This document shows, in pieces, positions 19,352-57,787 of a DNA stretch of 57,787 nucleotides. The translations under genes were made by a program, and so were the position numbers. The stretch is from Candidatus Saganbacteria bacterium CG08_land_8_20_14_0_20_45_16 (GTDB taxonomy: Bacteria > Margulisbacteria > WOR-1 > O2-12-FULL-45-9). The notes beneath the pieces were generated by a model that was not told the DNA's origin, searched no databases, and saw only the letters and a program-made list of their open reading frames with translations. The stretch's first letter is position 1. Each line of letters starts with the position of its first letter. The DNA is taken from the NCBI GenBank assembly GCA_002774365.1, contig PEYM01000120.1, positions 1-57,787 on the forward strand. Reading direction: 5' to 3'.

Positions 19352-19380
19352 GTGAAATTTTGCCAGGAAGTTAACGATAT
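19352..19380 (+). promoter_or_regulatory. Sigma-28-like promoter motif, copy 2 (upstream of gene A)
   Basis: GTGAAA 19352-19357, 15 nt, AACGATAT 19373-19380, followed by ATAT. 24 nt upstream of ATG 19405. Confidence 0.6.
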
Positions 19381-19404
19381 ATATGTAGAAAGGAGCTAAA
19401 ACTT

Positions 19405-22400
19405 ATGGAACTCTATACTCCAATTTATTTAAGGACTGCTGACCGAAGGAATTTGGGGCCAGGGCTGACACCTCGAACAGGACTGCATTGGGCACACAAT
19501 GTCTGGCGCAGGGCTTGGGCTGGCTATCATGCCAAGCAAATTGCTAAACTAACACTAGCTAATGTTGTTAATCTCCACGATCTAGCTGGTGATCCTAATT
19601 TAGCCGGCCACGTTGACCCCTTAATCAAATCAGGCATCACTCAATTAGTCATAAAAAGGTCGTTATTCTTTTCCAGAAAAGATTTTGGTTCCACCGTTGA
19701 TGAGCAAGATCAAAAGATAAGAGATCTTTGGCAAACTGTAAGAACTATATTAACTCCAAGTGCCCAGACATCAATAGACAATATCCCCACCATCCTTGAT
19801 AATTTAAACCAATTGCTTTGCGATCCTAGTCTTTATTACAAAAATACTACCATCAGCAACCAATTCAACGGCCCAGAAACCTTAAAAATTGAGCGAGAAA
19901 TCAAAGCTCAAAAACAGGCTAAAGACCGGCGTTTTGCTAATCTATCAAGACGAACACAAACACGAATCATTTTACTAAACCGCAAGATTATATATAGTTT
20001 AGATCAGACAAATTCCCCAAAACCATCAGAAGCATCAAAATATGCAAAACATATTAAACCTTTTGTCGCTAAAGTCATTCAAGGGGCTTGGCATGACTTA
20101 GAAAGAGAAGAAAGCCTAGCACAAACCCCTCGATGCGCCTTAGTCGTGTTGACACCACTAAGACATGAGCTGGGAGAAATGAAATACGTTGAAAGTAATT
20201 CTCCTTTATTTTCTGAAATGGAATTCTTGTCCAAAGAAGCAACAGCAATAAATCCTCTTTTCCAACTTTGTGAAGCAGTGAACAGAGCTCAATATACTGC
20301 TCCAACACCTCCTCAAGTTGCGGCGTCTCAACCTCCGGCTCAAGCTGCGGCTCTTCCTATTGAGATCAATACAGATACAACACCACATGCCATAGCTGAC
20401 CTTAACCAAAAAATAATTTGTAACCCTGATTTTATCAACGCTTGGGAAGCACAGCACCCCACCATTGAAATCCCTAGGAAATCAAGGCTAGGCCGTTTAA
20501 TAAGAAAAACAAGAGCCTATTCTAATGAAAATTTTGCTGACCTTACTGCCAAACAACGAGAAAGGATCAGACTAAGAAACCGCCTGCTGCTCGAAGAAGC
20601 TCATCGTGAATGCCCACAAACCAGGCCAAAACAGCTCCCGCTAGATTACTTGCTTGATGCCGGCCAAACCAAATTAATCAACCTGCCACTAATGGGTCGA
20701 GACACTTACAGTCTGGATCCATTGCTCCATGAAGCTCGACTGCCAAACCGCACCAGGCCATCGTACGGAGAACTATCAGCAATTTTCGCGGCCCTGCCCA
20801 GAAGGAAACACGCAGGAGACACCTGGGAAGTTTTGAAAAAACTTTTCCCTAACATTATTATTAAAGATGAAACCCCTGCTTCTTATTATTTAAGCATGTC
20901 TGCGGTCCTTAAGGGCTTAATTAAGATTGGCAAGCGTTATGTCTATGAGCTGGTGTTCAAAAATTGTCGTAATATTTTAGCCAGAATTGCCGCGAATGTT
21001 AGGGACAATTTTTGCGTTATCAGCTTAAGAGCCAACAGTATTCTAGAACTTGGCGATGAGATCACAGTTGGCAACAAAACATTAGAAGAACACACCTCAA
21101 CTGTCAGCGCCAAGAGCAATCAATTGTTGATCGTTTCCCAACCTATTAAAGATAAGGAAATGTACACTGGCCCAATTGTGCTGGAAAATATGCTGACCGG
21201 TCAAGTCAAATACGTTATTGCCGCTGATAATCACTCAAAACAAATGGAGTCACTCCTAATTAAAATGGGGGCTAAAGCAGCCAAATCAGCTACTGCCGCT
21301 GAAATCCTGGCTATTCTAAGCGAAGTCAAGGCAGCAGAATTAACAGATTTTGAGCGGGATGAAATCAAAGCAATGCGCAAAATTCTTGAGCAGCCAGACG
21401 TTGAGTCAACAAAATGGGTAATTCGCAAACATATTGATTCATTATATATAGCTGAAACTCAATGGTTAGACCGCTTACAAACAAATTTAGAAAGGATTAT
21501 AAACGACTTTCTGCGTCACACCGCTGGCCGCAGCGAACCCACCATGCTGGCGCGGGAAGGCAATCTCTTTAGTCTAATTAAAATGGTCATTCTGCCTATG
21601 ACCACCTCTGATTGCGGTGAATCAACTGATCCAGCACGAATTGTAGGAGATTATGCTACTGGCTTTGTTAAAAAAATTGCCACGGAATTTGATGTGTCTG
21701 AACAAATTGCGGCTGGGTTTTTGGCCCGTGTTTACCACGATGTGAGAGAAGAGGTTTTTAAGGCCGGTGGCCAAACTGGTAAAATTTTCTCAGCCAACCT
21801 AGGTGATGGCAGTAAAATCCACACACTTGAAGATAATCAGGGTAAAACTCTAGTAACTGAAGAAGACCAAGCCCTTGGTTTCGTTGAGAAAGCGCTTGAT
21901 TTTAGCTTAAGAAAAGCTGATAGCTATCGCTATTGGGGCAGGTTGCTTGATTTTCCACGCTGGGGCGAATATTCAAGGGTTACAACTGGGATAATTTCTG
22001 GTGCTTTCTACGGCAGTCTCGCCTCTGGCGGACTAGCTGGTTTATCATATGCTCTGCCCGGCAGCTTTGGTTGGCTTACGGTTGCTCTTACTGTTGGAGC
22101 TGCTAGCTTGGCAGCAGTTTTAACAACCCATCAACTACCAAAACCACAACCAACAGTGAGTAACAGTTATATTGGTTCCAGAAGAATGCACCTTAGAAAT
22201 TGGCGTAAGATTTTTAGCTGGCAGACTTTAAGACAATACTTTTTTTATGGCTTACTGCCTGATCACGCGGTTGAAGATGCCCCCTTAGGCGACAACTTAC
22301 ATTTTTGGGGCAAACACGCAATATTTGGGACCCAATTAACCGCGCCAGAGGGCCGAGTTGATTATCACAGCACTTTTGTTGCCAGCGGTTCCAGGGCTCA

Positions 22401-22788
22401 ACTTGGCAAAGGCATGAACAGTGGCTTATCTCCCACAATGCTGCACCGCTACGGCACTTTTGACGACAGCGCCAGAGGCGCCCAAAAAGTAATACAGCAG
22501 CCAGGACAATTGCACACGGTTGTAACTGAAAATGTCAGTCGGAGTAGGACCCAAAAATATAATGATCGACGCCCACATTCAAGCCCATTAAGGGCTGGGG
22601 TTAAAGGCGACAGGGTTGGTAAGGTCGGCAAAGAAAGACAGGAGAAAGCCCAAGCCAGCCTGCGAAAACTAACCTTGCTAGGAGCAAGCAAACATCACAC
22701 TGATGTAGCTCAAGCAGTTGACCGCGAGCTTGGTAAACAAATAAGTGACGATCCCTGGTTGCGGAGAGTTTTTAAGGAGGTAGACTAA
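19405..22788 (+). CDS. Giant-cluster protein A (1127 aa), ORFan with a C-proximal TM hairpin
   Basis: AAGGAG at 19390-19395. Two copies of the FA[DN]L[ST]..Q...I.L.NR module (19933-20000, 20533-20628). Hydrophobic pair GIISGAFYGSLASGGLAGLSYALPGSFGWLTVALTVGAASLAAVLTT (~21980-22130). No catalytic motif seen. Confidence 0.8.
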   Translation: MELYTPIYLRTADRRNLGPGLTPRTGLHWAHNVWRRAWAGYHAKQIAKLTLANVVNLHDLAGDPNLAGHVDPLIKSGITQLVIKRSLFFSRKDFGSTVDEQDQKIRDLWQTVRTILTPSAQTSIDNIPTILDNLNQLLCDPSLYYKNTTISNQFNGPETLKIEREIKAQKQAKDRRFANLSRRTQTRIILLNRKIIYSLDQTNSPKPSEASKYAKHIKPFVAKVIQGAWHDLEREESLAQTPRCALVVLTPLRHELGEMKYVESNSPLFSEMEFLSKEATAINPLFQLCEAVNRAQYTAPTPPQVAASQPPAQAAALPIEINTDTTPHAIADLNQKIICNPDFINAWEAQHPTIEIPRKSRLGRLIRKTRAYSNENFADLTAKQRERIRLRNRLLLEEAHRECPQTRPKQLPLDYLLDAGQTKLINLPLMGRDTYSLDPLLHEARLPNRTRPSYGELSAIFAALPRRKHAGDTWEVLKKLFPNIIIKDETPASYYLSMSAVLKGLIKIGKRYVYELVFKNCRNILARIAANVRDNFCVISLRANSILELGDEITVGNKTLEEHTSTVSAKSNQLLIVSQPIKDKEMYTGPIVLENMLTGQVKYVIAADNHSKQMESLLIKMGAKAAKSATAAEILAILSEVKAAELTDFERDEIKAMRKILEQPDVESTKWVIRKHIDSLYIAETQWLDRLQTNLERIINDFLRHTAGRSEPTMLAREGNLFSLIKMVILPMTTSDCGESTDPARIVGDYATGFVKKIATEFDVSEQIAAGFLARVYHDVREEVFKAGGQTGKIFSANLGDGSKIHTLEDNQGKTLVTEEDQALGFVEKALDFSLRKADSYRYWGRLLDFPRWGEYSRVTTGIISGAFYGSLASGGLAGLSYALPGSFGWLTVALTVGAASLAAVLTTHQLPKPQPTVSNSYIGSRRMHLRNWRKIFSWQTLRQYFFYGLLPDHAVEDAPLGDNLHFWGKHAIFGTQLTAPEGRVDYHSTFVASGSRAQLGKGMNSGLSPTMLHRYGTFDDSARGAQKVIQQPGQLHTVVTENVSRSRTQKYNDRRPHSSPLRAGVKGDRVGKVGKERQEKAQASLRKLTLLGASKHHTDVAQAVDRELGKQISDDPWLRRVFKEVD

Positions 22789-22789
22789 G

Positions 22790-25700
22790 ATGCCTATTAG
22801 AGTATGCCTTGGGCCTCAAGGGGGCCTAATCCCCAATCAAAAAAGAATTCTTGATCTCCTTAAACAGCACAAAGAACAGCTTCGCAGTTTGCCTTTGGGC
22901 AAAACAGTTGAAGTGGCAGTCCCAAAGATGGAGCTCAGGTATAACAGAATAACCATTGGTAATGCAACTCAAGACGCTCTAGTGGATAATGTTGACCATG
23001 AACTAAGAAAATTAGGGATTATCTCCATCACCCGTACCCGTAATAAGACAGGCGCACTTGATGACAAAATTATTTTTGACAATGGAGCCTTATCTACTGT
23101 AAACAAAATCGTTGCTTATGCCACGGAACTAGCTACGGCAGGCGATACCCACAAATTACAGCTTCTGCTTCATCTAATTTACACCACTGCCAGTTCTGGC
23201 CCCAGTACTGATTTCCAAGAAGCGACTAATAAAACTTTCCAAGCTATCAATAAAGCACTTGAGCAATTAATCGTCGCTACTGGCTATTCCGGGTCTCTGG
23301 GACTCATGGCCACAGGCAATTTTGGCGCATTTGTCCTGATGCCTATCCTCTGCCATATCATGGACGCGACCGCGTCTGTTCTTGGCGGTGGTTTTGGCAC
23401 CCGTCAAATGGGACATGAGCAGTACAAGGGCAACATTTGGCTGGGCTTATTTCGGCTCAATGTCTGTATGGCTTTGACCACAATTCTATATGATAGTTTT
23501 CTGCCAAGAGTGCCCAAGGGACGAGAACATAAGTGGACCTTTGCCAATGATAACCCGGTTATTTCATGCGGTGAATTAACAGAGGGCGGCCGCATGCTTA
23601 GCGAAGTTGGTTCAGTGGTAAAAGATGATCTTCGAGAGATTGTATGGGCTAATAATATAGACCAAGTTTGGACAAAGCTTATTGCTCTTGGGTTAATTGA
23701 AGAATTTATTGATGAAAAAACAGGTTTAACCCGCGGTCTGGTAACTAATGAGTTTAAAAGTGAATTGGATTTTTCGCACAAAGATGTTTATAAGAATGAG
23801 TTCAAAAGATTGGTGAGCCTCCCAACAACTCAACAACCACCAGCACCAGCAACGCCCATTCCCCCTCTTACTTTAAGCAACGACATCATTGACAATCTCT
23901 ATGTAGCCATCAAAGATGTTGGCAAGGTTAAAGGCATGTATTTTGTAGGCTCTCCGCATGATCCCAACCAGTTCCCTGTCATAAAAGTAGACGCGAGAGG
24001 TATCCCAATTGATGGCACAGAGCGCCTAGGCATGGCCTATGTTCTTATCGAAGCCATGGGAGAAGTGGTTGCTTCCACAGAAAAGATTGGCGGCCATCTC
24101 ACTGAACAAGTAGGTAAAGCAATTTTAGCTGCCCGCGGATTAAGAACTGCTAATGGCCGCAGGCTAATCAATTGGTATGCAGGAGCCCTAGACAAAGAGA
24201 TGGCCTTTGCGCTTCATGAAGCCTTAAGCACTCATATGTCTGGTTTGACCGTTGACCAAGCAGGCGATGGTGATACATATTCTAATCTTTTTGCCGCAGC
24301 AACTTTTGACACCCCAGAACAATTTGCCCAAGCCATCAGTAACCAGGGCCTGGCCAAAGAATTACTTGAGGATATAGCTGACAATGTTCTCTTCCCAGCC
24401 CTGCAAAAAGCAATGTACCGCACTGTATCCTTAACTGTTAATGGAGTAACTTACGAACGAAAAGTACCCAAATTTGCTTTTGCTGAATTAAATTATGGCG
24501 GCATGGCCATTGATGTCGGCACACTTGAAGCACTTTTTTCTGTATTTAACGACATGGTCAGATCATATCAAGCCACCCATGATGGTGAAACAAGAACAAA
24601 AATACTGCAAAGCATCCAAGAATTAGAAAGAATGGGTATTAAAGCAAATTTGGCCCAAGCCCATCAATTAGAAGCTGAAGCAGCTAACGCAGAAAGGGTT
24701 AGACAAGCCTTAACCCAAGGACTAGGAGGCATGGACCCAACCCTACCGCTTGAGCAATGTGAATTTCCACCAGTTTATTCGTATGAGATGGCACCTAGGA
24801 TCGCAGTCAGAGAAGACCCTCTGCCAAGCAGTATAAGGGAACGACGCTTTTCTTCTCTGACACTTGAAAACCTGCAAGGATTAATTGCCTGCGACGCCAC
24901 AGATAATCAAGAGCTTTGGGAGTGTCGCCAGATCAAGCAATCAGATGGTACATATGAAAGGGCATATACTCGTCATGACCCGCAAAAAGACATTTCTGCA
25001 ACCCCTGGAGAGTTACTTTACATCTATGACAGAGACAGAATAGTTTCAACCAAAGCTTTCCGTTGTCGTTTTTTGCCCAAAGCCAGACTAACCCCTGGGA
25101 CAGTAGGTCTTTATTCCCAAATTGGCAACGGCACTAATACCGTATCCTTGCCAGCAAACGGGGTTGTGATAGAAAGCAATATCACGGCATCAATAAGCCA
25201 TCAAGCCGCGGCCCAAGAACAAGAGGAAACCACTTATAATGCCTTAAGGCAAATCGCCCTCAAAGCGGAAAAAGGCGAATTATCTGAAAGTGAGAGGACA
25301 TATAAAGTCAATTTGCCCAACGGCTGGACAGCCCAATTCAAACGGATTTCCACCCAAGACGCGTTGGATTTTGCAGAACATTTCCACCAGGCAGCTGACC
25401 AACTCTTAGGTCAATATTATAGCCAAGTCAAAACACATTACGCAAAATCAGAATTTTCTGATAATAATCTAACAACTTTTTACGAGGAAGTTACAAAGTT
25501 TTTAAATGTCAACCCACCAACAGCAGACGAAAACACTCAAATTAAATGGCTAAACCAACAACTACAAGAGTATCAACTCCTGCCAACGTGCCAGAGCCAG
25601 GCAATAACCTTGACCCCTGAAATTTATCAACTCATTCAAGCTACCAATGCTTATTACGGACAAAATATTGACTTTGCGACTTTATCTGATGTCCAACAAC

Positions 25701-26902
25701 GTCATATTGAATTACTGAACAGGTTACTGCTTGAGCAAGCCATCAAGACAGGCCCAGCTGTTAAAGCAAAAGTTTCTGTGGCTAACGAACTCAAAGGCGT
25801 TGATCATATCCTCAATAGCTTAAGGCGGCGGGCTGGGCTTGAAGCGCGTGGACTCCTGATACCAATTAACACTAATAAGGGAATCAACAGGGTAGCAGGC
25901 AATTTGGGCGGGGTCAATTTTGGCGACGGCAGCAGCACCCATCTTTTTGAATTGTCCTTTGCCCACCAAGGCAGTGATGCCTACATTGTTTCTAACGCGG
26001 AAATTGACACTCCACAAGTAATTACTGAACCAACTCTTTTTACCCAACGCATGCCAGCCAATGGTTCTGTCCAGACATACCAGGCAGGCTTTGGGGATGA
26101 CCCAGGGAAAGACAAAAAGCCTGTCCTGGGCAAAAGAACTATTAAGGACCTGACCAGCAGCGGCGAGCTGGCTTGTGAACGCCTCTTTGTCTGGCGGACC
26201 AATCAAGAACTTGCCACCAAAGAGATGCTTAATAAATTAACGCAAGCAGTCATTCTTCAACTTAAGCTTTTGCCTTTTATCAAGGACATGAGCGTTGAGG
26301 CGGCAAAAAATGCTTTTGAAAAGCTTGATGTTAACGATACTGCCATTAAGGATGCAATAAAAAATGCCCTAGAAAAAAATCAAGCCGCCATAACCGCAAA
26401 TGTAGAAGGCGCGCTGGTCCAAGAAATCGTCGAACAAACCCCCCATATCTTGGGCCAGTATATTCACTATGCTTTAGCTGCAATTGGCGTTAACAAAACT
26501 GTCCAGGAAATCGAAAATATTTTAGCAGCTATGAAACCAACGTCACAGGAGGATGAAAAATCTGTCTCGGAATTTGTTAATCAAATCATTCCTAAAACTG
26601 ACACCTCTTCAGAGGCAAGCCAAGCCAGGGGTTTAATTAGAAAAATCGTTCATAATTATCCTGTGGCTGAGATGTTCTTTGCCGACGCCAAGTCCGGCAC
26701 CTTCTCCATTACTGATGTTTTTGAAAAACTGGTCAAGTTCCATAGGATCCAACCAATCTCGCTCATGCCAAAACTTGACGACAGCAAGCTAATAAGTCAT
26801 CCGTCACCCACAAATCAGCGCGCTCAAATAGTCGATGATACAAAAGAATTCGCTCTCAACGATCTAGACACTATGACATTAATTTCACAACCAACAGCTT
26901 AA
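22790..26902 (+). CDS. Giant-cluster protein B (1370 aa), ORFan with N-proximal hydrophobic segments
   Basis: ATG one nt after the stop of A (TAAgATG), with AAGGAGG at 22774-22780. Hydrophobic segments at ~23283-23505. FATLSDVQQRHIELLNRLLLEQ module at 25673-25756. Confidence 0.8.
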   Translation: MPIRVCLGPQGGLIPNQKRILDLLKQHKEQLRSLPLGKTVEVAVPKMELRYNRITIGNATQDALVDNVDHELRKLGIISITRTRNKTGALDDKIIFDNGALSTVNKIVAYATELATAGDTHKLQLLLHLIYTTASSGPSTDFQEATNKTFQAINKALEQLIVATGYSGSLGLMATGNFGAFVLMPILCHIMDATASVLGGGFGTRQMGHEQYKGNIWLGLFRLNVCMALTTILYDSFLPRVPKGREHKWTFANDNPVISCGELTEGGRMLSEVGSVVKDDLREIVWANNIDQVWTKLIALGLIEEFIDEKTGLTRGLVTNEFKSELDFSHKDVYKNEFKRLVSLPTTQQPPAPATPIPPLTLSNDIIDNLYVAIKDVGKVKGMYFVGSPHDPNQFPVIKVDARGIPIDGTERLGMAYVLIEAMGEVVASTEKIGGHLTEQVGKAILAARGLRTANGRRLINWYAGALDKEMAFALHEALSTHMSGLTVDQAGDGDTYSNLFAAATFDTPEQFAQAISNQGLAKELLEDIADNVLFPALQKAMYRTVSLTVNGVTYERKVPKFAFAELNYGGMAIDVGTLEALFSVFNDMVRSYQATHDGETRTKILQSIQELERMGIKANLAQAHQLEAEAANAERVRQALTQGLGGMDPTLPLEQCEFPPVYSYEMAPRIAVREDPLPSSIRERRFSSLTLENLQGLIACDATDNQELWECRQIKQSDGTYERAYTRHDPQKDISATPGELLYIYDRDRIVSTKAFRCRFLPKARLTPGTVGLYSQIGNGTNTVSLPANGVVIESNITASISHQAAAQEQEETTYNALRQIALKAEKGELSESERTYKVNLPNGWTAQFKRISTQDALDFAEHFHQAADQLLGQYYSQVKTHYAKSEFSDNNLTTFYEEVTKFLNVNPPTADENTQIKWLNQQLQEYQLLPTCQSQAITLTPEIYQLIQATNAYYGQNIDFATLSDVQQRHIELLNRLLLEQAIKTGPAVKAKVSVANELKGVDHILNSLRRRAGLEARGLLIPINTNKGINRVAGNLGGVNFGDGSSTHLFELSFAHQGSDAYIVSNAEIDTPQVITEPTLFTQRMPANGSVQTYQAGFGDDPGKDKKPVLGKRTIKDLTSSGELACERLFVWRTNQELATKEMLNKLTQAVILQLKLLPFIKDMSVEAAKNAFEKLDVNDTAIKDAIKNALEKNQAAITANVEGALVQEIVEQTPHILGQYIHYALAAIGVNKTVQEIENILAAMKPTSQEDEKSVSEFVNQIIPKTDTSSEASQARGLIRKIVHNYPVAEMFFADAKSGTFSITDVFEKLVKFHRIQPISLMPKLDDSKLISHPSPTNQRAQIVDDTKEFALNDLDTMTLISQPTA

Positions 26903-27221: not shown

Positions 27222-27229
27222 CAATAGTC

Positions 27230-27264
27230 CATAGTCACCCAAAAAACCTCGCGCATTTTAGTCT
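27230..27264 (+). repeat. Direct repeat, left copy, flanking the AAA+ ATPase gene
   Basis: CATAGTCACCCAAAAAACCTCGCGCATTTTAGTCT versus 28473-28508 CATAGTCCCCCAAAAAACCAGGGCGCATTTTAGTCT. It is preceded by the heptamer pair ATAGTCC ATAGTCA (27224-27237). Confidence 0.7.
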
Positions 27265-27283
27265 GACGATGCTAATTCGAAAT

Positions 27284-50900: not shown

Positions 50901-51047
50901 AGTCTGCACTGCGGGATTGGTTTTAGGTTCCCGTACTTGTTTGATAATTCCCGGGCTGGGCACGGAGCACACAATAATCACAGCGCAGAATTGAATGAGG
51001 ACGAAGTACTCCACGAGCTTCCATTACTTGACGATGGAGAAAATTAG
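44979..51047 (+). CDS. Giant-cluster protein G (2022 aa), helical/TPR region plus C-terminal beta-barrel-like domain
   Basis: AGGGAG upstream, 15-nt gap after F. TPR-like repeats at aa ~1000-1118 (..AYQTRGEIHLFRRHLSEASEDFARAISLNSENFEARVNLADIHNQQGDYARAITEYQELV..). The last ~300 aa alternate hydrophobic/polar residues and include ..GIGFRF. Confidence 0.8.
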   Translation: MSEPGIFIPSSYSRFSFSPSQEEAAPETSRFTGSNFYADASEVPSAISIDAISPVDLTTLCSNDIPCSLFARNPFAWDIFSQFLSFLTSESEDIRHDVWNARGVIGMLNRRVHDAQLRDEIVGVQDTPDQAESAGEFETQAESTERDNQSQLAEATILSWIFARNLGHQRPGFTLGRVSRSSIIAIFGTEDNSWEQFFEDPTQNTLTFKADIEDAIRTQITDTDKRERLLTLFQNTHPTDYDPLILAIRSLRVRPGSNQWISWRREYWEPQLALILCSELDDPMLRNNFLYLVRNHPNLHTRASLANQPFLEDRPLLHGVLVHEDGSDITWSGTDWANRVQARWAEIRAREFINDLFLGSGDVTHEGVTRHPFSFLESGNFFSLALLYKSLGRTDTYLSLLSRGRLVIEGRLAPRANNDGSLADLPEADRTFYVPNLTSRSGGREVSRMQAMANVQMSNLLEMQANELDEAIARLQRTLTEAGEDNLSSQGHAAISSILTIFRGRPGNNDSGLGLNQQHLTLSDLEPIVRARFPGAENERLSASRRNAILTQRRDERGRIWQALVDAHFINTDGLILSRDFAQLRSQLSGNRLRVSIDDIISLLQQVPERLEYHFVDHLTSLDPAANTLTREQLEQLLNEAHAVQDFLIQSAMSYRCFASHVPFARADNEDDVALHTIDQLEVRNGIANEEIRRGFRLKDAHNPCYLTTLREGAMHLEEVIHMGEQYEAYAATLSPHGVAPRQLRQILTFATIARAKLNMALLGEIDQQVDPIVLTILEPAILQLTNGQQIFDRLNSTTGITREDALEVQAQLLTQAAEQLAAAGAARYTYPYRTNTITPAMFDNLQQPGPAPTRRGQTQRAPLPISTAELLTLLETTGYINEQREVQPAISDFTEFAETLQAQNSGLSQAQLRAIHLILKNAPRTDHEYTINLIRDQQLTDVQLAQAENLARRAFLAQDLGNIEGEEGHEGSRALANQAKDILRQLLNRNNLVNLTPMTLALANFWLGKIYAIEASNANSIEETEHILDQADEYIRQALDANILQGSLLSSAYQTRGEIHLFRRHLSEASEDFARAISLNSENFEARVNLADIHNQQGDYARAITEYQELVARFDPSLPTATTFSGHLLLTRSRLGLLEAQMRQHGAYTDASIAALEEFIFGANEQEGIFHTEPRGSFVVRRAIDALLEAYSANEDYHASIVSLTHLLLTEDQAGTNPRILSDLDLLFVRNRQQRAQVLEALIAGHLLNNDNSVAADFDLTDSARASFVASFGPDINGLTTEQKGQVFDLLRLAARLRQDQNYINEQTVALRGRVTPNTHSHFPQRYRAHLYLKMIEATSWDRSQGISERFDRARTLLDNIPDDLSRIIEADRELKAELALLDAEVQMRQRAVSGRHQRQRAQEPVFTAELNTIVTRSQDPNLTSRLLRDQLEGLAYSKHFRAAADLAAQYQAPSEDAPALTPAQQTARELFVATQNRFEERGLPLAYQRFDFEMRMQQVDALTYHISDRERLRPDYTEPLGVLAQIIADSGQLEHNTPTLATFYQAARARAFQRRGDLFRYHWRGRSFEQALSNYGASIRTVNSLPARPRATAIDRTRSFLGLAETYADPNTAREVPALTREESLRLASSNYELAMAETLTLPYFSENRDFLLVQVNRSRSQFEERGGNMEDAIYYLQAAQHGLELVNGLDDEFLAGMDDAYRRYARLRGITTEVNWNSYSGFPQDGDTVRENQLTLEMGLSPGWINSRTGQRIYERFLLSGQADFYGGDTTSQTLYGGMELAGRTPELAWSTRAMVMLYSHTEGDGVANFLRRPNARMNAYLWHDSFTLSAALDLNTQQPEYTSAFVRAMYNSPDTLSRRPWIPTRLFNNFQAGGEYLTYIFNFSGNSHRIHAFGLRGDWQVNLNRATLRTAISLRLLYDSYVGDQHQSGRQLEQSAWDVALIGELGIDININRNFVLTAQCEVQGQSGFASLHCGIGFRFPYLFDNSRAGHGAHNNHSAELNEDEVLHELPLLDDGEN

Positions 51048-51076
51048 GTGAAATTTTTTAAAAAAGCTGACGATAT
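51048..51076 (+). promoter_or_regulatory. Sigma-28-like promoter motif, copy 5 (upstream of gene H)
   Basis: GTGAAA 51048-51053 immediately after the TAG of G, 15 nt, GACGATAT 51069-51076, then ATATAT. 21 nt upstream of ATG 51098. Confidence 0.6.
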
Positions 51077-51097
51077 ATATATGAGAAGGGGACGAAA

Positions 51098-53872
51098 ATG
51101 TTTTCAAGAATAGGGTCTTATCTTTCACAATATTTTTCTTGGGTGCCTGGCTTATCAACTCTTAGCTGCGCACCTAATGATGGCGAGCAGGTCTGTATTG
51201 CCCCAGAGCCGCATCTGCCTCACCTTTCCCGAGATGAAACTGGTATGGTTTGCGGCAATGATGAGATCACCGAAGCTATCCAACCAGGTGATTTTCCCGT
51301 TTCACTTCACTGCGAGAGCAATGACGGTATTGGCGCAGCCAATTGCCTCGGTGGCAATGATGCTGATAGAATCAACAGGGACTCACTGCAAATTACCTGT
51401 CTAAACAACGGAGAAGAATTCTCCCCAAGTCTTAACCCAGACGGCACAATGGATGTTGAGCTCTTCGAGCAGCCTTTAGGTGAGATTGGCTGTTATGTTT
51501 CACAATACTATGACCGCAATGCTAACGAAGTTAAAACAATTGGCTCTTACGCAGAAGCGTTGTACTTGGACCAAGAACGAAAGTCCAACTACCAAGACCC
51601 GGCTTTTACTTTCTGGTTAACAATGAACGGCATCAGCTATGAACCTAATTACCGTGAGATCCCTGATTTTGGCACCATTGACCCCAGACCACAAGCAGCC
51701 ATGTCTCGTGGCTCTGACAACATCTACAACTGGCAAATTGACAATTTAACTGACGATTTTGGCAATCGGCTCCATTTAATTGACAGCAATGCAAACTATT
51801 TCCTTAATAACAACGAAAATTTTTCGAGCGGTTATACAGAAAGAAACACTTACCGCATTCAAGGGCAAATGCTGCCTAATGCCGGACCAGGAACATTCTA
51901 CGCTATTTTTAGTGATGACTACGGCCACACACGCCGGGTCACTTTTTATCAGCCAACCATTACACCACTGGAGTTTAACAGTAATGATATTTCCTGGTAC
52001 ACCGTCAACCCAGAAAGCCCTTACTGGATTTGTATAAACCCGGGCCTGCCTGTTTCTGGCGCTACCAACTACTTGTTTTCTGCCACCTTTACCGACCCTA
52101 CAACCAATGAAACCGCTCCCCCCTATGCCATAGCCAGTCAACCAAGTAACTGCATTGCCTTTAGCCCCACCCGCTTAGGCGACTATTCCCTGCAAGCAGA
52201 AATTACTACCTATAGCGGAGACATCTTAAATGCTAGAACGACTGATACAATTACAGCGCATGAAAACGGCACAGCCGTGCTCATGGGCTCAATGCTAGGC
52301 GTACACACCGCTCACATCGGCGATGATGTTGTGCTGATGGGCAATTCCAGCGACCCAGACGCAACTTATGATTGGGAAATTTTACCGCCTCGTGGCGATG
52401 TCATGAGCTTTAACGGACAAACCGCCAGCTTTACAGCAGAATTAGAGGGCGATTATGATGTTAGACTAGTCATTACTTCTAGCGACGGCCGCACCCAAAA
52501 AGTTATTTCTCGAGATATTGAAGTTTATCCGCCTTACACAATTATTCCTTCAGCCACAATAAGCCGCGAACTCACCTACTCTTATCATCTTGGTGACACG
52601 GCAAGAGATATCATTTGCCGCTCTGATGATCCGGCCGCCACCTTTGCTTGGACTGTTACCAGACCAGCTCCAAATGAGCACGGCGAGGTCATAGAAAGAT
52701 TTGCTGGCCCAGTCATTCGCTCATATACTTTTGACAGTATTGGGGATTTTGATTTTAGATGCACGGTCGTTGCTAGTGACAGCATAACAACCAGTGGTGA
52801 AAGCCGTTCAGTCAATGTTTATCCATCAAATGTTGAGCTACCGCTGGCTGGGATGGCGGCCTCGTTTGCCGCGGAAGTAGGCACAGACGTTGTTTTTGCA
52901 ACCCCAAGCCCTGATACTTCAAGGTATAGCTACACTTGGGAGTTTGTTGATGACGGCTCAACAGAAACCGGCACAGAAGTTACGCATAATTTTGCTGAAA
53001 CAGGGACCTACATGGTCAGGCTAACAGTTGCTTCCCTGGCAGACCCAACACTTAAAAATTCAGTTGTTCAAACTATTACTATTGTTCCGATTGGTGTTGA
53101 GATCCCAACTTTGTCAATCGTGGGGCTGCCAGCTGTTCACGAAGACACTCCCTTTACCTTAAGTGTAGCCGACCCTGACACAGACAATTTTGTCTACACA
53201 TGGGAAATTGCTGGCGAGCCAACCCCTGTCACTGGAGCCAGCATTACCCACACCTTTAATAACCCTGGTCAATACGGAGTAGTCTTGCGCGCCACCAGCA
53301 GGCGAGATTCTAGCGTCTCTTTTGTCACCCCAGCATATTATATTTATGTAATCCAAAACAGCATTCCTTTACCTAACTTATCAATCATTGCGCCATTCTC
53401 TGGCCAAGTTAGTACCGCTACTACAACAAACAATATTAGGTTTAGGGCCTCTGACCCCAGCCCAGAATATAATTACTCCTTTGATTTTGTTGGCAGTGCC
53501 AGCGCTATGGGTTCTGACGTTACCCACGCCTTTAATGAACTTGGGACCTACAGTGTCATCTTAACCGCAACACTAAGATCGGATCCATCAGTAACTTATC
53601 AGATCACTCATAACATAACTATTGTGCCTTATCATGTACCAAATGTTGGCATTGAAGGCCCGCTCTCTGCGCCAGTTAACACAGCAGTAAGCTATAATGT
53701 TCCTGAACCAACACCAGGCGCGACTTACACCTGGCATTTTGGCGACGGGACAACGGCCACAGGGACTTCGGTCTCCCATACTTATCGCTCTATTGCTGAT
53801 TTTCAGGTTAGATTAACCGCCGATAACCACGGCACAACCAACGAAATCCGACATAATATTACGATCTATTAA
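51098..53872 (+). CDS. Giant-cluster protein H (924 aa), Cys-rich N-terminal region plus six tandem PKD/Ig-like repeats
   Basis: Repeats of ~88 aa from aa ~393 to the end, with PKD-like signatures. Examples are YSYTWEFVDDGSTETGTEVTHNFAETGTYMVRLTV, FVYTWEIAGEPTPVTGASITHTFNNPGQYGVVLRA and ATYTWHFGDGTTATGTSVSHTYRSIADFQVRLTA. Confidence 0.8.
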   Translation: MFSRIGSYLSQYFSWVPGLSTLSCAPNDGEQVCIAPEPHLPHLSRDETGMVCGNDEITEAIQPGDFPVSLHCESNDGIGAANCLGGNDADRINRDSLQITCLNNGEEFSPSLNPDGTMDVELFEQPLGEIGCYVSQYYDRNANEVKTIGSYAEALYLDQERKSNYQDPAFTFWLTMNGISYEPNYREIPDFGTIDPRPQAAMSRGSDNIYNWQIDNLTDDFGNRLHLIDSNANYFLNNNENFSSGYTERNTYRIQGQMLPNAGPGTFYAIFSDDYGHTRRVTFYQPTITPLEFNSNDISWYTVNPESPYWICINPGLPVSGATNYLFSATFTDPTTNETAPPYAIASQPSNCIAFSPTRLGDYSLQAEITTYSGDILNARTTDTITAHENGTAVLMGSMLGVHTAHIGDDVVLMGNSSDPDATYDWEILPPRGDVMSFNGQTASFTAELEGDYDVRLVITSSDGRTQKVISRDIEVYPPYTIIPSATISRELTYSYHLGDTARDIICRSDDPAATFAWTVTRPAPNEHGEVIERFAGPVIRSYTFDSIGDFDFRCTVVASDSITTSGESRSVNVYPSNVELPLAGMAASFAAEVGTDVVFATPSPDTSRYSYTWEFVDDGSTETGTEVTHNFAETGTYMVRLTVASLADPTLKNSVVQTITIVPIGVEIPTLSIVGLPAVHEDTPFTLSVADPDTDNFVYTWEIAGEPTPVTGASITHTFNNPGQYGVVLRATSRRDSSVSFVTPAYYIYVIQNSIPLPNLSIIAPFSGQVSTATTTNNIRFRASDPSPEYNYSFDFVGSASAMGSDVTHAFNELGTYSVILTATLRSDPSVTYQITHNITIVPYHVPNVGIEGPLSAPVNTAVSYNVPEPTPGATYTWHFGDGTTATGTSVSHTYRSIADFQVRLTADNHGTTNEIRHNITIY

Positions 53873-54216: not shown

Positions 54217-54245
54217 CTGAAATTTTCTCCACATCCTAACGATAT
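54217..54245 (+). promoter_or_regulatory. Sigma-28-like promoter motif, copy 6 (upstream of gene I)
   Basis: CTGAAA 54217-54222, 15 nt, AACGATAT 54238-54245. Only 11 nt upstream of ATG 54257, with no SD. Confidence 0.55.
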
Positions 54246-54256
54246 AGCTATAACCT

Positions 54257-56326
54257 ATGCTAAGATCAACTTTTACTAGCAGGCTCAATAATAATCAATG
54301 GTACCAAGCTTTAATCGGCCGGGAGCTAAGAGATAACATTAAGACTTGGTTGAATAAACCCCACCCCCCCCTTGGCCATACATTTGCCTTTCCTGGCCTA
54401 GCATCTGGTATTGATCCCACTCGAATTAAAAGGGTTTCGGTCACAGAAGTCAGGGCCTGGCGGATGAGCGGCACTGGAACAACCAGCACTACTGGCACAC
54501 CCCCTAATTCCCCACCCCCAGCACCCAGTCCCACCCCAAAAACCACGTTAATCCAAAAAATCTTTCGCAATTGGATGACCAAGCTCGCTTCAATGGCTGC
54601 TTCAGCCTACACAATTTATTACTTAGCCTGGAATTTGCCGCTCAAAAACGGGATTACCCTGATTGATCTGGTTTTTACTGATTGGCATTCTCAACATAGT
54701 TTAAAAAACGAAGGCCGCATCATTGCCGGGGTCACAACTTTAATCCTTTTTCTCCCACTCGGTTCAATTCTCTATCTCTTAGTCCAATTAGCCAAAAAGG
54801 TCCCTAGCCTCGCTAAAAAAATTGCCTCAATTTCACAAAATAAAGAGCTGGCAACAACAAGGCGAGAACTTACTCTTGCCAACCAAGATCTAGCAGCCGA
54901 GCAAAGGAAATTTCAGGAAAAAACTGATGAAGTAGAAAAATTGACGCAACAAATTGAGAAAATTAGAAAAGTATCAAAGAAAACACTTGACGAATTACAA
55001 AATAAATATAATCCAGCCACTAATAAATATAATCTAACCACTAATAAAATAAAAACCTTAACGCAAGCCCTTAAAACTGCTGCCGAAGAAAAAGCCTTAA
55101 GAGAGAAAGCTGAGGCAAACCCAAGAGAAGAAGAGACTCGAACCCAGGGAGCAGCAGACAAAAGAGAGCTTGCCCAATTAAAACCAAGATTAGAAAGAGC
55201 AGAAAAAAGAGTTGAAGATCTTGAGGGGGAGAGTAACTCTCTTATAAAATTAGGGGATGCCAATCGAAGATTAGATGAAGAGCTTGATGCAGAAAGAGAA
55301 AAAGTCAACCAAGCAATTGCTTCCCGCAAACAAGCAGAAGCAGCCAAATTAGCTGCCGAAAACGTTGCTAGCCAAGAGCGCGACACAGCACACCAAGCAA
55401 TCATCGCCCAACAAAAAGCCGAAGGCAATCTCGAGAGAAGAACAGAAGAGGTAACTACCTTAAGGCGAAAGCTTGAGGCTGCCCTGTCACTGCTTAGACA
55501 ATCAGAAGAAACTCTTGAAGGATTAGAGCTTGATCTTGAAAGAAAACAACAAACTGAAGCAGAACATTTAGATGTGTCTGCCGAGCTTGATAATTTTGAG
55601 CAAAGAATAGATGGACTTATCACAGACAAAAAGCAAGCTGGGCACGAGGCCAAAAAACTCGAAGCCCGCGCCATTAGTGCAGAAGCTGGGCTTGAAGATC
55701 TACGAGTCCAGGTAAAAGAGTTAAAGGGCTTAAAAGATGTCAAACTTGCTCAAGGAAGAATTGAGGAACATAGAGAAGAAGCAGAGAGACAAAAAAGACG
55801 AGCTGATGGCTTGGAAGATAGAGCCAAAAGAGCCGAAGATCAAGCTCAAGCAGCAGAAAAAACAGCTGAAGCAGCCAACAGAGAAAGAGATGAGCTCAAA
55901 AGAAATCTTGAAAGGCTCACAGCTAATCACCGAGAGCTTGAACAAGCTCTCGAGGCTGAAAGAGAGCAAGTCAGGGAAGCTGCCAAAGGGACCGAAGCTG
56001 CATTTGCCAGTATCCGGCAAGAGCTTGAAGAAAAAAAATCGAAAGCCAATCTTCTACAGCAACGGCTTGATGATGCTACTGCAAAAAGTGCCAGGGAGTT
56101 GCAAGAGGTAAGGGACGAACTCAACAACACAACAACAAAAGCTACAAAAGTATGGAATGATCTTACGGCTCTTCGCCAAGAGACAGGACCATTGAAAACA
56201 GCCAACCAAGAAATGACCAGGCGCCTAAATAAGCTTGAGGGAGAAAACGCTAACTCGAAAAAACAAAAAGATTTTTACTTCGAGCAGGTTAAGAATCTAG
56301 AAGAAGAAGTTAAGCGTCTGAAATAG
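54257..56326 (+). CDS. Giant-cluster protein I (689 aa): conserved N-domain, Pro/Thr linker, two TM helices, ~480-aa coiled coil
   Basis: N-domain ..PPLGHTFAFPGLASGIDPTRIKRVSVTEVRAWRMSG. Linker TPPNSPPPAPSPTPK. TMs LASMAASAYTIYYLAWNL and IIAGVTTLILFLPLGSILYLLVQLA. The rest is E/K/A/L/Q/R-rich heptad-like sequence. Confidence 0.8.
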   Translation: MLRSTFTSRLNNNQWYQALIGRELRDNIKTWLNKPHPPLGHTFAFPGLASGIDPTRIKRVSVTEVRAWRMSGTGTTSTTGTPPNSPPPAPSPTPKTTLIQKIFRNWMTKLASMAASAYTIYYLAWNLPLKNGITLIDLVFTDWHSQHSLKNEGRIIAGVTTLILFLPLGSILYLLVQLAKKVPSLAKKIASISQNKELATTRRELTLANQDLAAEQRKFQEKTDEVEKLTQQIEKIRKVSKKTLDELQNKYNPATNKYNLTTNKIKTLTQALKTAAEEKALREKAEANPREEETRTQGAADKRELAQLKPRLERAEKRVEDLEGESNSLIKLGDANRRLDEELDAEREKVNQAIASRKQAEAAKLAAENVASQERDTAHQAIIAQQKAEGNLERRTEEVTTLRRKLEAALSLLRQSEETLEGLELDLERKQQTEAEHLDVSAELDNFEQRIDGLITDKKQAGHEAKKLEARAISAEAGLEDLRVQVKELKGLKDVKLAQGRIEEHREEAERQKRRADGLEDRAKRAEDQAQAAEKTAEAANRERDELKRNLERLTANHRELEQALEAEREQVREAAKGTEAAFASIRQELEEKKSKANLLQQRLDDATAKSARELQEVRDELNNTTTKATKVWNDLTALRQETGPLKTANQEMTRRLNKLEGENANSKKQKDFYFEQVKNLEEEVKRLK

Positions 56327-56458: not shown

Positions 56459-56487
56459 GTGAAATTTTCTGCAAACCAAGCCGATAA
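56459..56487 (+). promoter_or_regulatory. Sigma-28-like promoter motif, copy 7 (upstream of gene J)
   Basis: GTGAAA 56459-56464, 15 nt, GCCGATAA 56480-56487 (a perfect consensus -10), then ATATAT. 18 nt upstream of GTG 56506. Confidence 0.6.
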
Positions 56488-56505
56488 ATATATGGAGCAT
56501 AAAAA

Positions 56506-57787
56506 GTGCCTAATCTAACAGCAAAAATACTTAAGAGCGGGGCCTGGCAGATCGCCACTGGCTATCAACTGCGACGCAATGTACGCAACTGGCTGCGTCA
56601 TACTAATCTAAGACCACCCTTGGGTCAAACATTTGCCTGTCCCGGAGCGCCTGGCATTGATCCCACTAGAATTAGAAGGGTTTCTCCCACAGAAGTCAGG
56701 GCCTGGCGGATGAGCAGCACTAATGCAGCCAGCACAACTCCCCCAGTACCTATGACCCAGCCCCCAACACCTACCCCACCCATCAGCAAAACCCTTAAAC
56801 TCGCTATCAATCACCTAATTGGCTTTCGAGCCAGGGCTGCCTCTTTTCTACTCGGAGCCACCATTGCCGCTCCATTAACCGCTTGGGCAGCCTGGTCTCT
56901 ACCGCTTCAAGGCAGCATAACTTTTATTGACCTTGTACCTTCTGATCTTTTTCTAAGACATGGCATTGTCATGTCACTTTACGCAGAAGGCGTGGCCATT
57001 AGCCTTATGTCAGCCCTGCCAGTCGCTTTATTGTCTGGCTTTATTTTTGTTAGTCTGGCCCAAAGGATTACCAAGTCGTTCCTGACCAAAAATTGTCAAA
57101 CAAACAAATTGCTTGGTTTCAAAGCCGCAGTTGAAACCTTATCACCCAAACAAAAACGCAAACTCTTCAATAAACTCCCGATCATTGAGGTCTCTTTCAG
57201 TCGGCTAAATGAGCGAGCTGCTAAACTTGAAGCTGAGGCTAGCAGCGTGGCTGACCTGGAACATAAAATTGCCGAGTTAGAGCTCCTTAAACAACAGGTT
57301 GGGGCTTTAACAAGCGAAAAAGAGGAAGTTACGCAACGCGCTCAACAAGCAGAAAGAGCTAAATCAGAGGCAAAACAAAGAAAAAATGAGCTTGAACAAG
57401 AGGTAAAAACCAACAAAGATATTATTAAGACTTTGCAAACAAAAAATGAGAAGCTTGACCGAACAATTAAAAAACAAAATAAGGCTCTGGCTGCCCTTAA
57501 AATCACTGAGGATGCCTTAGCAGACCTCAAAACTGAGCTTGCAGAACTGCAAAAACAAATCAAAGAATTAAAAACAAAGAAAGGACGACTAAACGAAAAA
57601 CTTGAGTCAGCTAACACATTAGCAAAAAACCTGCAACAAGAGCTAAGAAAAAAAGAAGTACGGATTCAAGAGTTAAGCCAAGATATTCTAGAAGTTGAAG
57701 GGTTCAACACTAACCTAACGCTAAAAATATCAGAAGTAGAGGCCAGAGCAGAAAGATCTGGCCTTGAGCTAGTGGCAGCAAACACAA
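56506..57787 (+). CDS. Giant-cluster protein J (partial, more than 427 aa), paralogue of I; absent from the supplied ORF track
   Basis: My own translation from GTG 56506, with GGAG at 56494-56497 and an in-frame TAA at 56500-56502 upstream: VPNLTAKILKSGAWQIATGYQLRRNVRNWLRHTNLRPPLGQTFACPGAPGIDPTRIRRVSPTEVRAWRMSS.., a P/T linker, two hydrophobic segments, then coiled coil. The frame stays open to the window end. Confidence 0.75.
   Translation, partial: MPNLTAKILKSGAWQIATGYQLRRNVRNWLRHTNLRPPLGQTFACPGAPGIDPTRIRRVSPTEVRAWRMSSTNAASTTPPVPMTQPPTPTPPISKTLKLAINHLIGFRARAASFLLGATIAAPLTAWAAWSLPLQGSITFIDLVPSDLFLRHGIVMSLYAEGVAISLMSALPVALLSGFIFVSLAQRITKSFLTKNCQTNKLLGFKAAVETLSPKQKRKLFNKLPIIEVSFSRLNERAAKLEAEASSVADLEHKIAELELLKQQVGALTSEKEEVTQRAQQAERAKSEAKQRKNELEQEVKTNKDIIKTLQTKNEKLDRTIKKQNKALAALKITEDALADLKTELAELQKQIKELKTKKGRLNEKLESANTLAKNLQQELRKKEVRIQELSQDILEVEGFNTNLTLKISEVEARAERSGLELVAANT

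Follow-up and report, generated by a model that had tools for sequence, protein, structure and literature searches.

A lineage-specific, co-regulated block of giant genes in Saganbacteria that most likely handles cell-surface polysaccharide

The 57,787-nt stretch of contig PEYM01000120.1 analysed in this work (the window), which belongs to Candidatus Saganbacteria bacterium CG08_land_8_20_14_0_20_45_16, contains at positions 19,352–57,787 a block of very large genes, named A to J, together with a small gene, s. The analysis revealed that this block is one copy of a co-regulated system specific to Margulisbacteria/WOR-1, whose units are headed by a promoter motif of their own and whose synteny is kept in seven other loci of 40–57% GC. 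Its most likely function is the synthesis, export or trimming of a polysaccharide at the cell surface. Polysaccharide handling is indicated because glycoside hydrolases (GH) of families GH8 and GH26 are the only enzymes of recognised families found in it and because sugar-nucleotide genes are linked to it in relatives. An earlier note on the window had presented the block as a co-regulated and undescribed system, and this part of the description held, with the promoter conserved at 22 sites in eight loci and the gene order recurring in relatives.

The genes and main domains of the block are the following (aa, amino acids; TM, transmembrane; all on the plus strand).

19405–22788, plus strand: gene A, 1127 aa, 6.2% lysine, hydrophobic hairpin at about residues 860–909
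22790–26902, plus strand: gene B, 1370 aa, TM hairpin at residues 170–234
26922–27221, plus strand: gene s, small conserved protein of 99 aa
28605–32771, plus strand: gene C, 1388 aa, about 6–7 N-terminal TM helices (residues 108–411) followed by a soluble part of some 950 aa, highly conserved
32765–36931, plus strand: gene D, 1388 aa, soluble N-terminal part, conserved core and about 5–6 TM helices (881–1109)
36944–39058, plus strand: gene E, 704 aa, helical, Cys-rich N-terminus, 4 lysines (0.6%)
39156–44963, plus strand: gene F, 1935 aa, acidic N-terminus, GH8-like domain, then about 1200 aa of helical repeats; 10 lysines (0.5%)
44979–51047, plus strand: gene G, 2022 aa, helical/TPR scaffold, 12 lysines (0.6%)
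48135–48341, plus strand: Pfam TPR match of G (residues 1053–1121)
50124–50948, plus strand: beta-rich C-terminal region of G (residues 1716–1990), candidate outer-membrane barrel
51098–53872, plus strand: gene H, 924 aa, 4 lysines (0.4%), Cys-rich N-terminus, immunoglobulin (Ig)-like domain of about 190 aa and six PKD-like repeats (about 395–924)
54257–56326, plus strand: gene I, 689 aa, N-terminal domain, one TM helix (152–180) and a lysine-rich coiled coil of about 500 aa
56506–57787 and past the window end, plus strand: gene J, GTG start, TM helices (segments within 112–190) and coiled coil, incomplete

The coordinates and sizes of the open reading frames (ORFs) agree with the earlier description, and a single gene of the block (27284–28411) lies on the minus strand. 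Translational coupling was also found as described, with TAAgATG at 22786–22792 between A and B, preceded by AGGAGG, and a 7-nt overlap of C and D at 32765–32771. The short gaps at B/s, D/E and F/G do carry GGAG(G), their range being 12–19 nt instead of the 12–15 nt first given. Hydrophobic segments are present in A, B, C, D, I and J but missing from E to H, the TPR of G matches Pfam and its C-terminus reads as beta-rich, H contains six PKD-like units with a Pfam PKD match, and coiled-coil tails were seen in both I and J, all in line with what had been noted. The latter two genes are paralogous (the N-terminal 190 aa of J are 41% identical to I), and their library matches are to generic coiled coil only; J reaches at least 516 aa in the 58,126-bp source contig, which extends 339 bp further than the window. 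As a separate observation, D and E lie in the same frame with only a TAG stop and four codons between them (36929–36946), so that read-through of D would fuse both proteins, and F and G are in the same frame with two in-frame stops in between (44961–44981).

Promoter and gene order

The motif TGAAATTT-N14-CGATA was found exactly six times in the window, always on the plus strand, with fixed spacing and 39–96 nt upstream of A, C, F, H, I and J (0.03 occurrences are expected from shuffled sequences). The six units that the earlier note had recognised by a common promoter are in this way recovered with an exact motif, at the following sites.

19352–19387, plus strand: promoter of unit A-B-s, GTGAAATTT-N14-CGATATATAT, sigma-28/FliA-like or, alternatively, like the promoters of extracytoplasmic function (ECF) sigma factors
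28528–28563, plus strand: promoter of unit C-D-E, same motif
39059–39094, plus strand: promoter of unit F-G, same motif, beginning right after the stop codon of E
51048–51083, plus strand: promoter of H, same motif, beginning right after the stop codon of G
54217–54246, plus strand: promoter of I, same motif
56459–56494, plus strand: promoter of J, same motif, with GCCGATAA as −10 block

The motif precedes the orthologous genes in every related locus, and the alignment of the 22 sites gave the consensus TGAAATTT-N14-CGATAtATAtaTgG, in which CGATA is invariant (22/22). The strict pattern was matched 17 times in 123 kb of loci of the system versus 4 times in 143 kb of Margulisbacteria housekeeping loci, and no match was seen in 1.29 Mb of loci from other bacteria. 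Two of the four housekeeping matches lie upstream of homologues of a 249-aa secreted protein and the other two at the chromosomal position equivalent to that of the A promoter. A generic sigma-70 scan yielded nothing above chance and did not call the motif sites. Because the same conserved promoter heads the units, they are regarded as a single co-regulated system.

A closer look at both blocks of the motif allows a comparison with known promoter classes. GAAAT is placed at the offset of the sigma-28 −35 element (21 nt), with the −35 T replaced by G. The sigma-28/FliA consensus consists of TCTAAAG at −35 and GCCGATAA at −10 (PMC12784957), and that of ECF promoters of tGAAACnTTTt and CGTA (PMC5758882). 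The −35 region TGAAATTTT, with its T-tract, recalls the ECF tGAAACnTTTt, but the −10 element is CGAT and not CGTA or CGTC. As in the sigma-28 (FliA/SigD/WhiG) regulons, the promoter has two blocks with a −10 of the type (GC)CGATA(A/T), an A-rich −35 (GAAAT versus TAAAG) and the 21-nt offset, and a set of cell-surface genes is served from several promoters. Unlike in those regulons, the −35 opens with TGAAATTT and not with TCTAAAG, the −10 is extended by a conserved TATATAT-GG tract, and the target genes are non-flagellar. The units most likely constitute the regulon of one alternative sigma factor, which the consensus would place in the FliA class; no sigma factor gene was found in the 57,787-nt window.

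The regulon probably has an outlying member in the neighbourhood of the block, the 249-aa secreted protein mentioned above, which shows weak similarity to CIA30 and F5-F8-type-C (CBM-like) domains. Its gene in the window is preceded by a looser copy of the motif.

13246–13279, minus strand: GTGAAATTT-N14-CGAAAG, upstream of ORF 12477–13226 (secreted, 249 aa)

Strict copies stand upstream of its homologues in two Margulisbacteria metagenome-assembled genomes (MAGs), at L005:7777 and L008:5973. Other incomplete or distant copies were observed. A partial motif, GTGAAATTT...AGATAA, is located at 2803–2832 (plus strand) upstream of an uncharacterised 235-aa ORF (2848–3555), and a second one, GTGAAATTTTTTTT...CGAAA, at 19236–19263, 116 nt upstream of the A promoter. 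At L005:1–820 and L008:1–1191 (minus strand) the strict motif appears just past the homologue of u135 and drives an outward gene that runs off the fetched sequence; this gene has the position and orientation of gene A in the window, and the fetched part showed no similarity to A to J by BLAST.

The second line of evidence comes from relatives. An exhaustive HMMER search of 1.84 billion cluster representatives with D residues 189–1388 retrieved 19 relatives, 13 of them at E<1e-30, whose source records are hypothetical proteins from Margulisiibacteriota/WOR-1 MAGs. A word-indexed search, whose index misses the family, returned a single relative for F (P0002) and none for G or C beyond the query, and scans of genome and metagenome contigs with alignments of F and G gave no matches. 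The loci recovered have the following content.

L084: A, B, s, C, D, E, F (GH26), G (GH26)
L086: B, s, C, D, E, F
L085: s, C, D, E
L087: C, D, E, F (GH8)
L083: C, D, E, F (GH26) and a further protein longer than 1500 aa, preceded by three NTP-transferase-like genes
L091 and L092: UDPGP-receiver fusion, histidine kinase, two NTP-transferases (one GMPPB-like), C, D, E, GH26 protein, GH8+TPR protein
L002: collinear orthologues of F, G and H (P0002, a 1872-aa protein and a 779-aa protein)

The conserved core is therefore read from these rows as C-D-E-F-G, accompanied by A-B-s or H in some loci, with I and J variable or untraced. Orthologues of A (in L084) and B (in L084 and L086) were found, and s, which is always placed between B and C, has orthologues in L084, L085 and L086 (E 1e-21 to 1e-24). 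Searches of L002 against the window with phmmer on a small database gave E values of 4e-87 for F, 5e-50 for G and 3e-23 for H; the Ig-like domain of H (about 190 aa) is common to the 779-aa protein of L002, and G is also collinear with the G-position proteins of L084 and L091. L091 and L092 belong to WOR-1/Margulisiibacteriota genomes, one of the contigs being 1.67 Mb long. The conserved synteny that the earlier note had suggested looking for in related MAGs is thus present, with the order A-B-s-C-D-E-F-G in L084 and parts of it in the other loci. The term "ORFan" used there remains appropriate as far as characterised homologues are concerned, of which there are none, but not for A, B, s, C, D, E, F, G and H, all of which have syntenic orthologues. 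A similarity of D to the 2157-aa giant of L002 (E 3e-6) was discarded, as it is absent from BLAST and phmmer on a small database and amounts to an architectural analogy only.

The minus-strand gene between s and C is foreign to this order.

27229–28508 (gene 27284–28411), minus strand: gene X, inserted cassette, AAA_14 + DUF4143 ATPase, PADLOC candidate family PDC-S01

The cassette stands between two imperfect direct repeats, each some 35 nt long (27229–27264 and 28472–28508), and in relatives s is directly followed by C; for these two reasons gene X is considered an insertion and not a member of the system. It was the only PADLOC match over the block.

The 19 kb upstream of the block encode ValRS, formiminotransferase, FtsH, MazG, Mfd, Pth, two GH26 proteins, CBM9 and ABC permeases, and are gene-for-gene collinear with contigs of WOR-1/Candidatus Margulisiibacteriota MAGs (identities of 59–60% for Mfd, up to 70% for ValRS, up to 80% for FtsH and 90% for one permease). 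No orthologues of A to J were found in the fetched sequence of those MAGs. WOR-1 corresponds to Saganbacteria, a sibling lineage of Cyanobacteria (PMC6349859).

Glycanase modules and protein families

The earlier note had seen no catalytic context in any of the giant proteins. This has to be corrected for F, which contains the following domain.

39972–41135, plus strand: GH8-like domain of F (residues 273–660), catalytic equivalents E297 (VSEASAY), D403 (AASDD) and D546 (WDAQR)

By itself F gave no GH8 match in Pfam even at E<=1, and the link is transitive through P0002, its orthologue in L002, which scores 53 bits with Pfam GH8 (cut-off 24) and whose GH8 region is 32% identical to F 273–660 (E 2e-38). 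A two-sequence profile of F and P0002 reached Clostridium thermocellum CelA (1KWF/1CEM) with an E value of 6e-10. In the resulting alignments D403 and D546 of F correspond to D152 and D278 of CelA, and E297 to the Glu of the SEGQ motif in the GH8 structure 6VC5. The three residues are invariant between F and P0002. F thus appears to carry a divergent GH8 glycanase, apparently competent, with all three catalytic residues kept. It resembles GH8 enzymes such as CelA and BcsZ in the profile match, in the conserved donor Glu and both Asp, and in NPSY- and YYG-type motifs common to F and P0002, itself a bona fide Pfam GH8 member; it differs from them in falling below Pfam detection and in being embedded in a 1935-aa, nearly lysine-free, signal-less protein. 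An AlphaFold2 model of the domain with the P0002 alignment was unusable for recognising the (alpha/alpha)6 barrel of GH8 (predicted local distance difference test, pLDDT, 32.8).

A Pfam scan of 30 proteins from relatives returned only GH26 (4), GH8 (1), TPR and nucleotidyl-transferase/hexapeptide families. The position and family of the GH module vary among loci. In the window F alone carries GH8; in L002 the GH8 of F is joined by a GH8-like module at the C-terminus of G; L087 has GH8 in F; L083 has GH26 in F, and L084 has it in both F and G; in L091 and L092 GH26 is in F and GH8 at the N-terminus of G. The glycanase module therefore moves and changes family between orthologous F/G scaffolds.

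Sugar-nucleotide genes, NTP_transferase/GMPPB-like in all cases and with UDPGP in addition in L091 and L092, stand directly upstream of C and on the same strand in L083, L091 and L092, and those of L083 carry the promoter motif of the system. The pre-core region extends over L091:1–6365, L092:1–6401 and L083:1529–5725. One of the NTP-transferases resembles GDP-mannose pyrophosphorylase (GMPPB). In L091 and L092 the UDP-glucose pyrophosphorylase (UDPGP) is fused to the receiver domain of a response regulator, a fusion that suggests a direct two-component control of the supply of precursors.

The remaining families have no recognisable relatives. A to E matched no Pfam family, either in the window (A included) or among the 30 proteins from relatives, and the family profiles of B, C, D and E found no solved structure in the PDB. 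In the soluble part of C, behind the TM helices, a domain of about 650 aa is very strongly conserved; acidic, basic and His residues are invariant at many positions, among them H827 D828 and D1024-x-D1026-Q1027 (a DxDQ string). D has an invariant core before its TM bundle, formed by FFG (642–644), E752-D753 and, 37 residues further on, Q790-R791-x-x-R794-W795. This ED...QRxxRW arrangement recalls, at similar spacing, the TED/QxxRW motifs of processive synthases of glycosyltransferase (GT) family GT2, and may serve as a lead only: the assignment of D as a GT2 synthase was not supported, given that no BcsA, CesA, chitin or hyaluronan synthase was found in the PDB even at E<=10 and no Pfam GT was matched. 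A paralogy between C and D was discarded (hhalign probability 5.5%).

E orthologues of about 460–500 aa are present in five loci. The last 280 residues or so of G read as alternating amphipathic beta-strands and end in ...GIGFRFPYLF; the single-sequence AlphaFold2 model of G 1700–2022 was unusable (pLDDT 33.8), and the G profile matched no barrel in the PDB, only generic TPR. Two private helical modules recur among the components. The first one, IWxxLxxxGY[IL]NxxG(xI...F), is located at E 276, F 1014 and 1393, and G 560, and also at 1072 and 1127 of the 2157-aa protein of L002; the second, F[AS]xL[ST]xxQxxxIxLLNRxLLExA, at A about 170–200 and 364–409, B 947–994 and F 187–273. These modules may be docking elements between components. 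Cys-rich N-terminal regions were observed in E (residues 8–84) and H (24–132). In the E-like proteins of L083–L087 and L091 a short uncharged leader stands before conserved Cys and a Y.LCLLE.N motif, and a canonical Sec signal is missing; such a leader could be a non-classical export or processing signal.

Lysine scarcity in E to H

A feature absent from the earlier note concerns the composition of E, F, G and H (36944–53872), which contain 4, 10, 12 and 4 lysines, respectively, that is 30 in 5,585 aa (0.54%). The longest lysine-free gaps are 582 aa in G, 355 in F, 305 in H and 249 in E, while arginine is kept at 4–9% and the net charge lies between −46 and −110. The other genes of the window have 3.2–13% lysine (5.6–7.0% in A to D, 9.3% in I and J), leaving aside a doubtful 130-aa ORF, and in 80 control loci no ORF of 300 aa or more, out of 570, falls below 1%. 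That doubtful ORF, at 7264–7656 (plus strand), has a GTG start, 1.5% lysine, a GC content of 0.54 and no family match, and perhaps is not a real gene.

Several explanations for the scarcity were tried and rejected. A compositional or mutational bias is at odds with the frequency of out-of-frame AAA/AAG triplets in E to H (1.7–6%, mostly 3–6%, versus 0.5% in frame) and with the GC content of the window, which is lower than that of relatives with normal lysine. A trait of the family is contradicted by the orthologues of E, F, G and H (3.3–10.6% lysine), and an alkaliphile or halophile trait of exported proteins by the window proteins with Sec or lipoprotein signals (3.2–8.3%). A simple inside/outside rule does not apply either, as lysines occur on either side of the TM segments in A to D, I and J, and recent Lys-to-Arg replacement by single transitions would leave an excess of AGR codons that is not clearly seen. 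Where orthologues have Lys the window proteins mostly have Arg, followed by Glu, Gln, Asn or Thr, and of the lysines left in the aligned parts of F and G roughly half coincide with a Lys in L002. Because neither composition nor a family trait explains the scarcity, the loss is attributed, on sequence grounds, to selection at the protein level, confined to four soluble signal-less proteins of one lineage whose domains are of extracellular type.

If a lysine desert is defined as a run of 150 aa or more, or of half the protein or more, that contains no lysine beyond what composition explains, E to H are lysine deserts. We know of no ubiquitin-like or Pup system for this lineage. Published lysine deserts belong to proteins of the ubiquitin system and to Actinobacteria that use pupylation, and are interpreted as avoiding lysine-directed modification (PMC10665810, PMC10169902). 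The proteins described here share with them the long lysine-free stretches (up to 582 aa in G) and the retention of arginine, and differ in that whole giant proteins are affected, in four adjacent genes only and at 45% GC, where composition is not the cause. A literature search found no precedent for lysine-purged bacterial surface proteins. Since such chemistry is specific to the primary amine, we infer that the purge might protect exposed components from lysine-directed proteolysis, cross-linking, acylation, tagging or Schiff-base formation.

Proposed role and its alternatives

A lineage-restricted, co-regulated system with an intact GH8 triad, glycanase modules swapped between scaffolds and sugar-nucleotide genes linked in relatives is the observed basis for the mechanism put forward here. 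In it, transcription would start from at least six promoters of one alternative-sigma class. C and D would form a platform in the cytoplasmic membrane at which a polysaccharide of the beta-linked glucan or (gluco)mannan type is polymerised from nucleotide sugars and/or translocated, and E to H would act outside the cytoplasm. F would trim or release the chain, as BcsZ does; G would scaffold it and may conduct it across the outer layer, as BcsC, PelB or PgaA do; H, with its Ig and PKD domains, would bind the polymer or the cell surface. A, B, s, I and J, and H as well, would be accessory components for anchoring or regulation, or at the membrane or surface. Such a machine, similar to synthase-dependent exopolysaccharide (EPS) secretion and built from different parts, is proposed tentatively, at somewhat short of an even chance, and we are considerably more certain that the block constitutes one envelope system related to glycans.

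The resemblance to the Bcs, Pel, Pga and Alg systems lies mostly in the arrangement. In the bcs operon bcsZ is followed by bcsC, and here a GH8 protein (F, comparable to BcsZ) directly precedes a TPR/beta-rich giant (G, comparable to BcsC, PelB and PgaA). Large membrane proteins come before F-G in the same direction of transcription, sugar-nucleotide genes are linked in relatives, and the type of hydrolase differs between loci, as it does with the polymer in the known systems. The differences are also considerable. There is here no GT2 synthase, no QxxRW-type profile match, no PilZ and no cyclic di-GMP (c-di-GMP) module; sequence profiles show no relation of C and D to BcsA and BcsB; the hydrolase forms one protein with a helical scaffold of about 1200 aa, the components exceed those of the known systems in size by a factor of 2 to 10, and E to G have no Sec signals. 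No GT family was matched in A to J or in the 30 proteins from relatives, and no c-di-GMP receptor (PilZ, degenerate GGDEF/EAL) in the window or relatives with Pfam and NCBIfam.

Envelope association is plausible because of the six membrane proteins, the exported-type GH, PKD and TPR domains and the lipoprotein-type signal sequences of the L002 orthologues of F and H. Of the earlier description as envelope-spanning, the association with the envelope can therefore be kept as plausible, and the spanning itself as a conjecture. The description as a structural, adhesion or motility-type assembly was too vague and is probably off target, because the only family enzymes are beta-glycanases of GH8 and GH26 and the linked sugar-nucleotide genes of relatives point to polysaccharide handling; the sigma-28-like promoter keeps motility possible.

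Several results weigh against an EPS-like machine. Pfam and NCBIfam gave no glycosyltransferase, PilZ/GGDEF protein, flippase or ABC exporter in A to J or their orthologues, and the profiles of B, C, D and E reached no solved structure, be it BcsA, CesA, a chitin or hyaluronan synthase or any other. A Sec signal peptide is missing from E, F and G in the window and from their counterparts in most relatives, and H has only a weak N-terminal hydrophobic segment, so that export is assumed. The barrel of G is unproven at the pLDDT of its model, and the window itself contains no sugar-nucleotide genes. Two further points fit the degradation of external polymers equally well: the block adjoins the operon with GH26, CBM9 and ABC permeases, and GH8 and GH26 are classically degradative.

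According to this last explanation the block would encode a surface-displayed polysaccharide-degrading or foraging complex, an analogue of the cellulosome or of Sus, in which F and G would be giant scaffolds displaying GH8 and GH26 towards glucan, mannan or xylan from outside the cell, H would attach to the substrate through its PKD/Ig domains, and A to D, I and J would anchor and export the complex. The mainly endo-acting nature of both families, with the catalytic residues kept, is in agreement with it, and so are the divergent orientation and conservation of the adjacent operon, whose permeases are sugar permeases, the promoter motif that the neighbouring secreted CBM-like protein of 249 aa shares here and in L005 and L008, and the swapping of GH modules between loci, typical of substrate-driven diversification. 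The pyrophosphorylases found directly upstream of C in three loci are however biosynthetic, and those of L083 have the same promoter; moreover, foraging offers no obvious need for two conserved giant polytopic membrane proteins, and CBMs, cohesin/dockerin, SusC/D-like proteins and uptake transporters are missing within the block. Neither A to J nor the relatives contain cohesin-dockerin, SusC/SusD or CBM domains, CBM9 being confined to the neighbouring minus-strand operon. Foraging is on balance unlikely, although it is the main rival of the EPS-like machine. The earlier note had stated that confident homology to characterised systems such as Glt/Nfs gliding complexes, Spr proteins of the type IX secretion system (T9SS), RHS cassettes or adhesin operons would refute its reading. 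Pfam, NCBIfam and PADLOC gave no match to these systems (Glt/Nfs, Spr, RHS/YD and RTX/Big adhesin families) and nothing beyond generic TPR, PKD and coiled coil, and the block is, as far as its domains can be recognised, not a cellulosome, Sus, T9SS/gliding, RHS toxin cassette or RTX adhesin operon.

The same negative search bears on an apparatus for motility, adhesion or surface structure (slime or sheath gliding, or a holdfast) under a FliA-type switch, in which the glycanases would have an accessory remodelling function only. No homology to known gliding, flagellar, pilus, T9SS or adhesin components was found, and flagella are unmentioned in the main genomic description of these bacteria (PMC6349859). 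What speaks for an apparatus of this kind is the fit of the promoter to the sigma-28/FliA class, the usual driver of late motility and cell-surface genes, together with the long membrane-anchored coiled coils of I and J, the PKD/Ig repeats of H and the six membrane proteins. The class of the promoter is nevertheless deduced from its consensus, with no sigma factor in the window, and I, J and H lie outside the core C-D-E-F-G, only H among them having an orthologue (in L002). We regard this explanation as improbable. As for the absence of any system, that is, unrelated large hypothetical genes that follow one another by chance, or a recently acquired island of toxin, defence or phage origin, it would account for A to E having no known domain, for the mobile-looking ATPase cassette X inside the block and for the lack of A to J orthologues in the fetched sequence of relatives collinear with the upstream 19 kb. 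It is contradicted by the synteny kept in the seven other loci and by the conservation of the promoter, and is further opposed by the translational coupling, a GC content near that of the flanks, the silence of PADLOC apart from X, and the finding that in L005 and L008 the equivalent chromosomal site is occupied by a gene preceded by this promoter; we give it hardly any credit.

Within the EPS-like reading a bolder version can be formulated, in which C and D would be an unrecognised non-GT2 synthase/translocon, with the core of D as a convergent or extremely diverged acceptor site, the signal-less scaffolds would have an export route of their own, and the lysine purge would confer immunity to a lysine-directed activity of the cell or its neighbours. 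We consider this version doubtful, and that the system is categorically new in its mechanism is in our opinion rather unlikely.

Consecutive very large genes are known from other bacteria, and the incidence of very large genes is noted as high in Margulisbacteria (10.1101/2023.11.21.568195, PMC12863079). The 'Archaeovorins' of Omnitrophota and Giant1-5 of Apilactobacillus kunkeei also combine consecutive very large genes, in a lineage that is uncultivated or streamlined, with GH and TPR domains and a proposed role at the surface. They differ from the block in showing no sequence relationship to it and in size (3–40 kaa versus 0.7–2 kaa here, in thousands of amino acids), and the block has a definite organisation into operons of several families, served by a promoter class of its own.

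Margulisbacteria/WOR-1 (Saganbacteria) are uncultivated and their cell biology is essentially unknown. For these bacteria the locus adds five or more conserved families of proteins (A to E) that Pfam does not contain, of which the four compared with the PDB, B to E, have no relative there, and a lineage-specific promoter class with 22 conserved instances, whose consensus is a handle for mapping the whole regulon in MAGs. It also shows a modular mounting of GH8 and GH26 glycanases on giant scaffolds. If C and D were a new polysaccharide synthase/exporter, the system would add a new class to the few bacterial exopolysaccharide pathways. The lysine purge constitutes a natural experiment, with orthologous giants that have and do not have lysine under the same promoter, and if it reflects immunity no earlier 'whole-protein lysine desert' would be known from prokaryotes beyond the context of pupylation. 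It could reveal a lysine-directed process at the surface of environmental bacteria.

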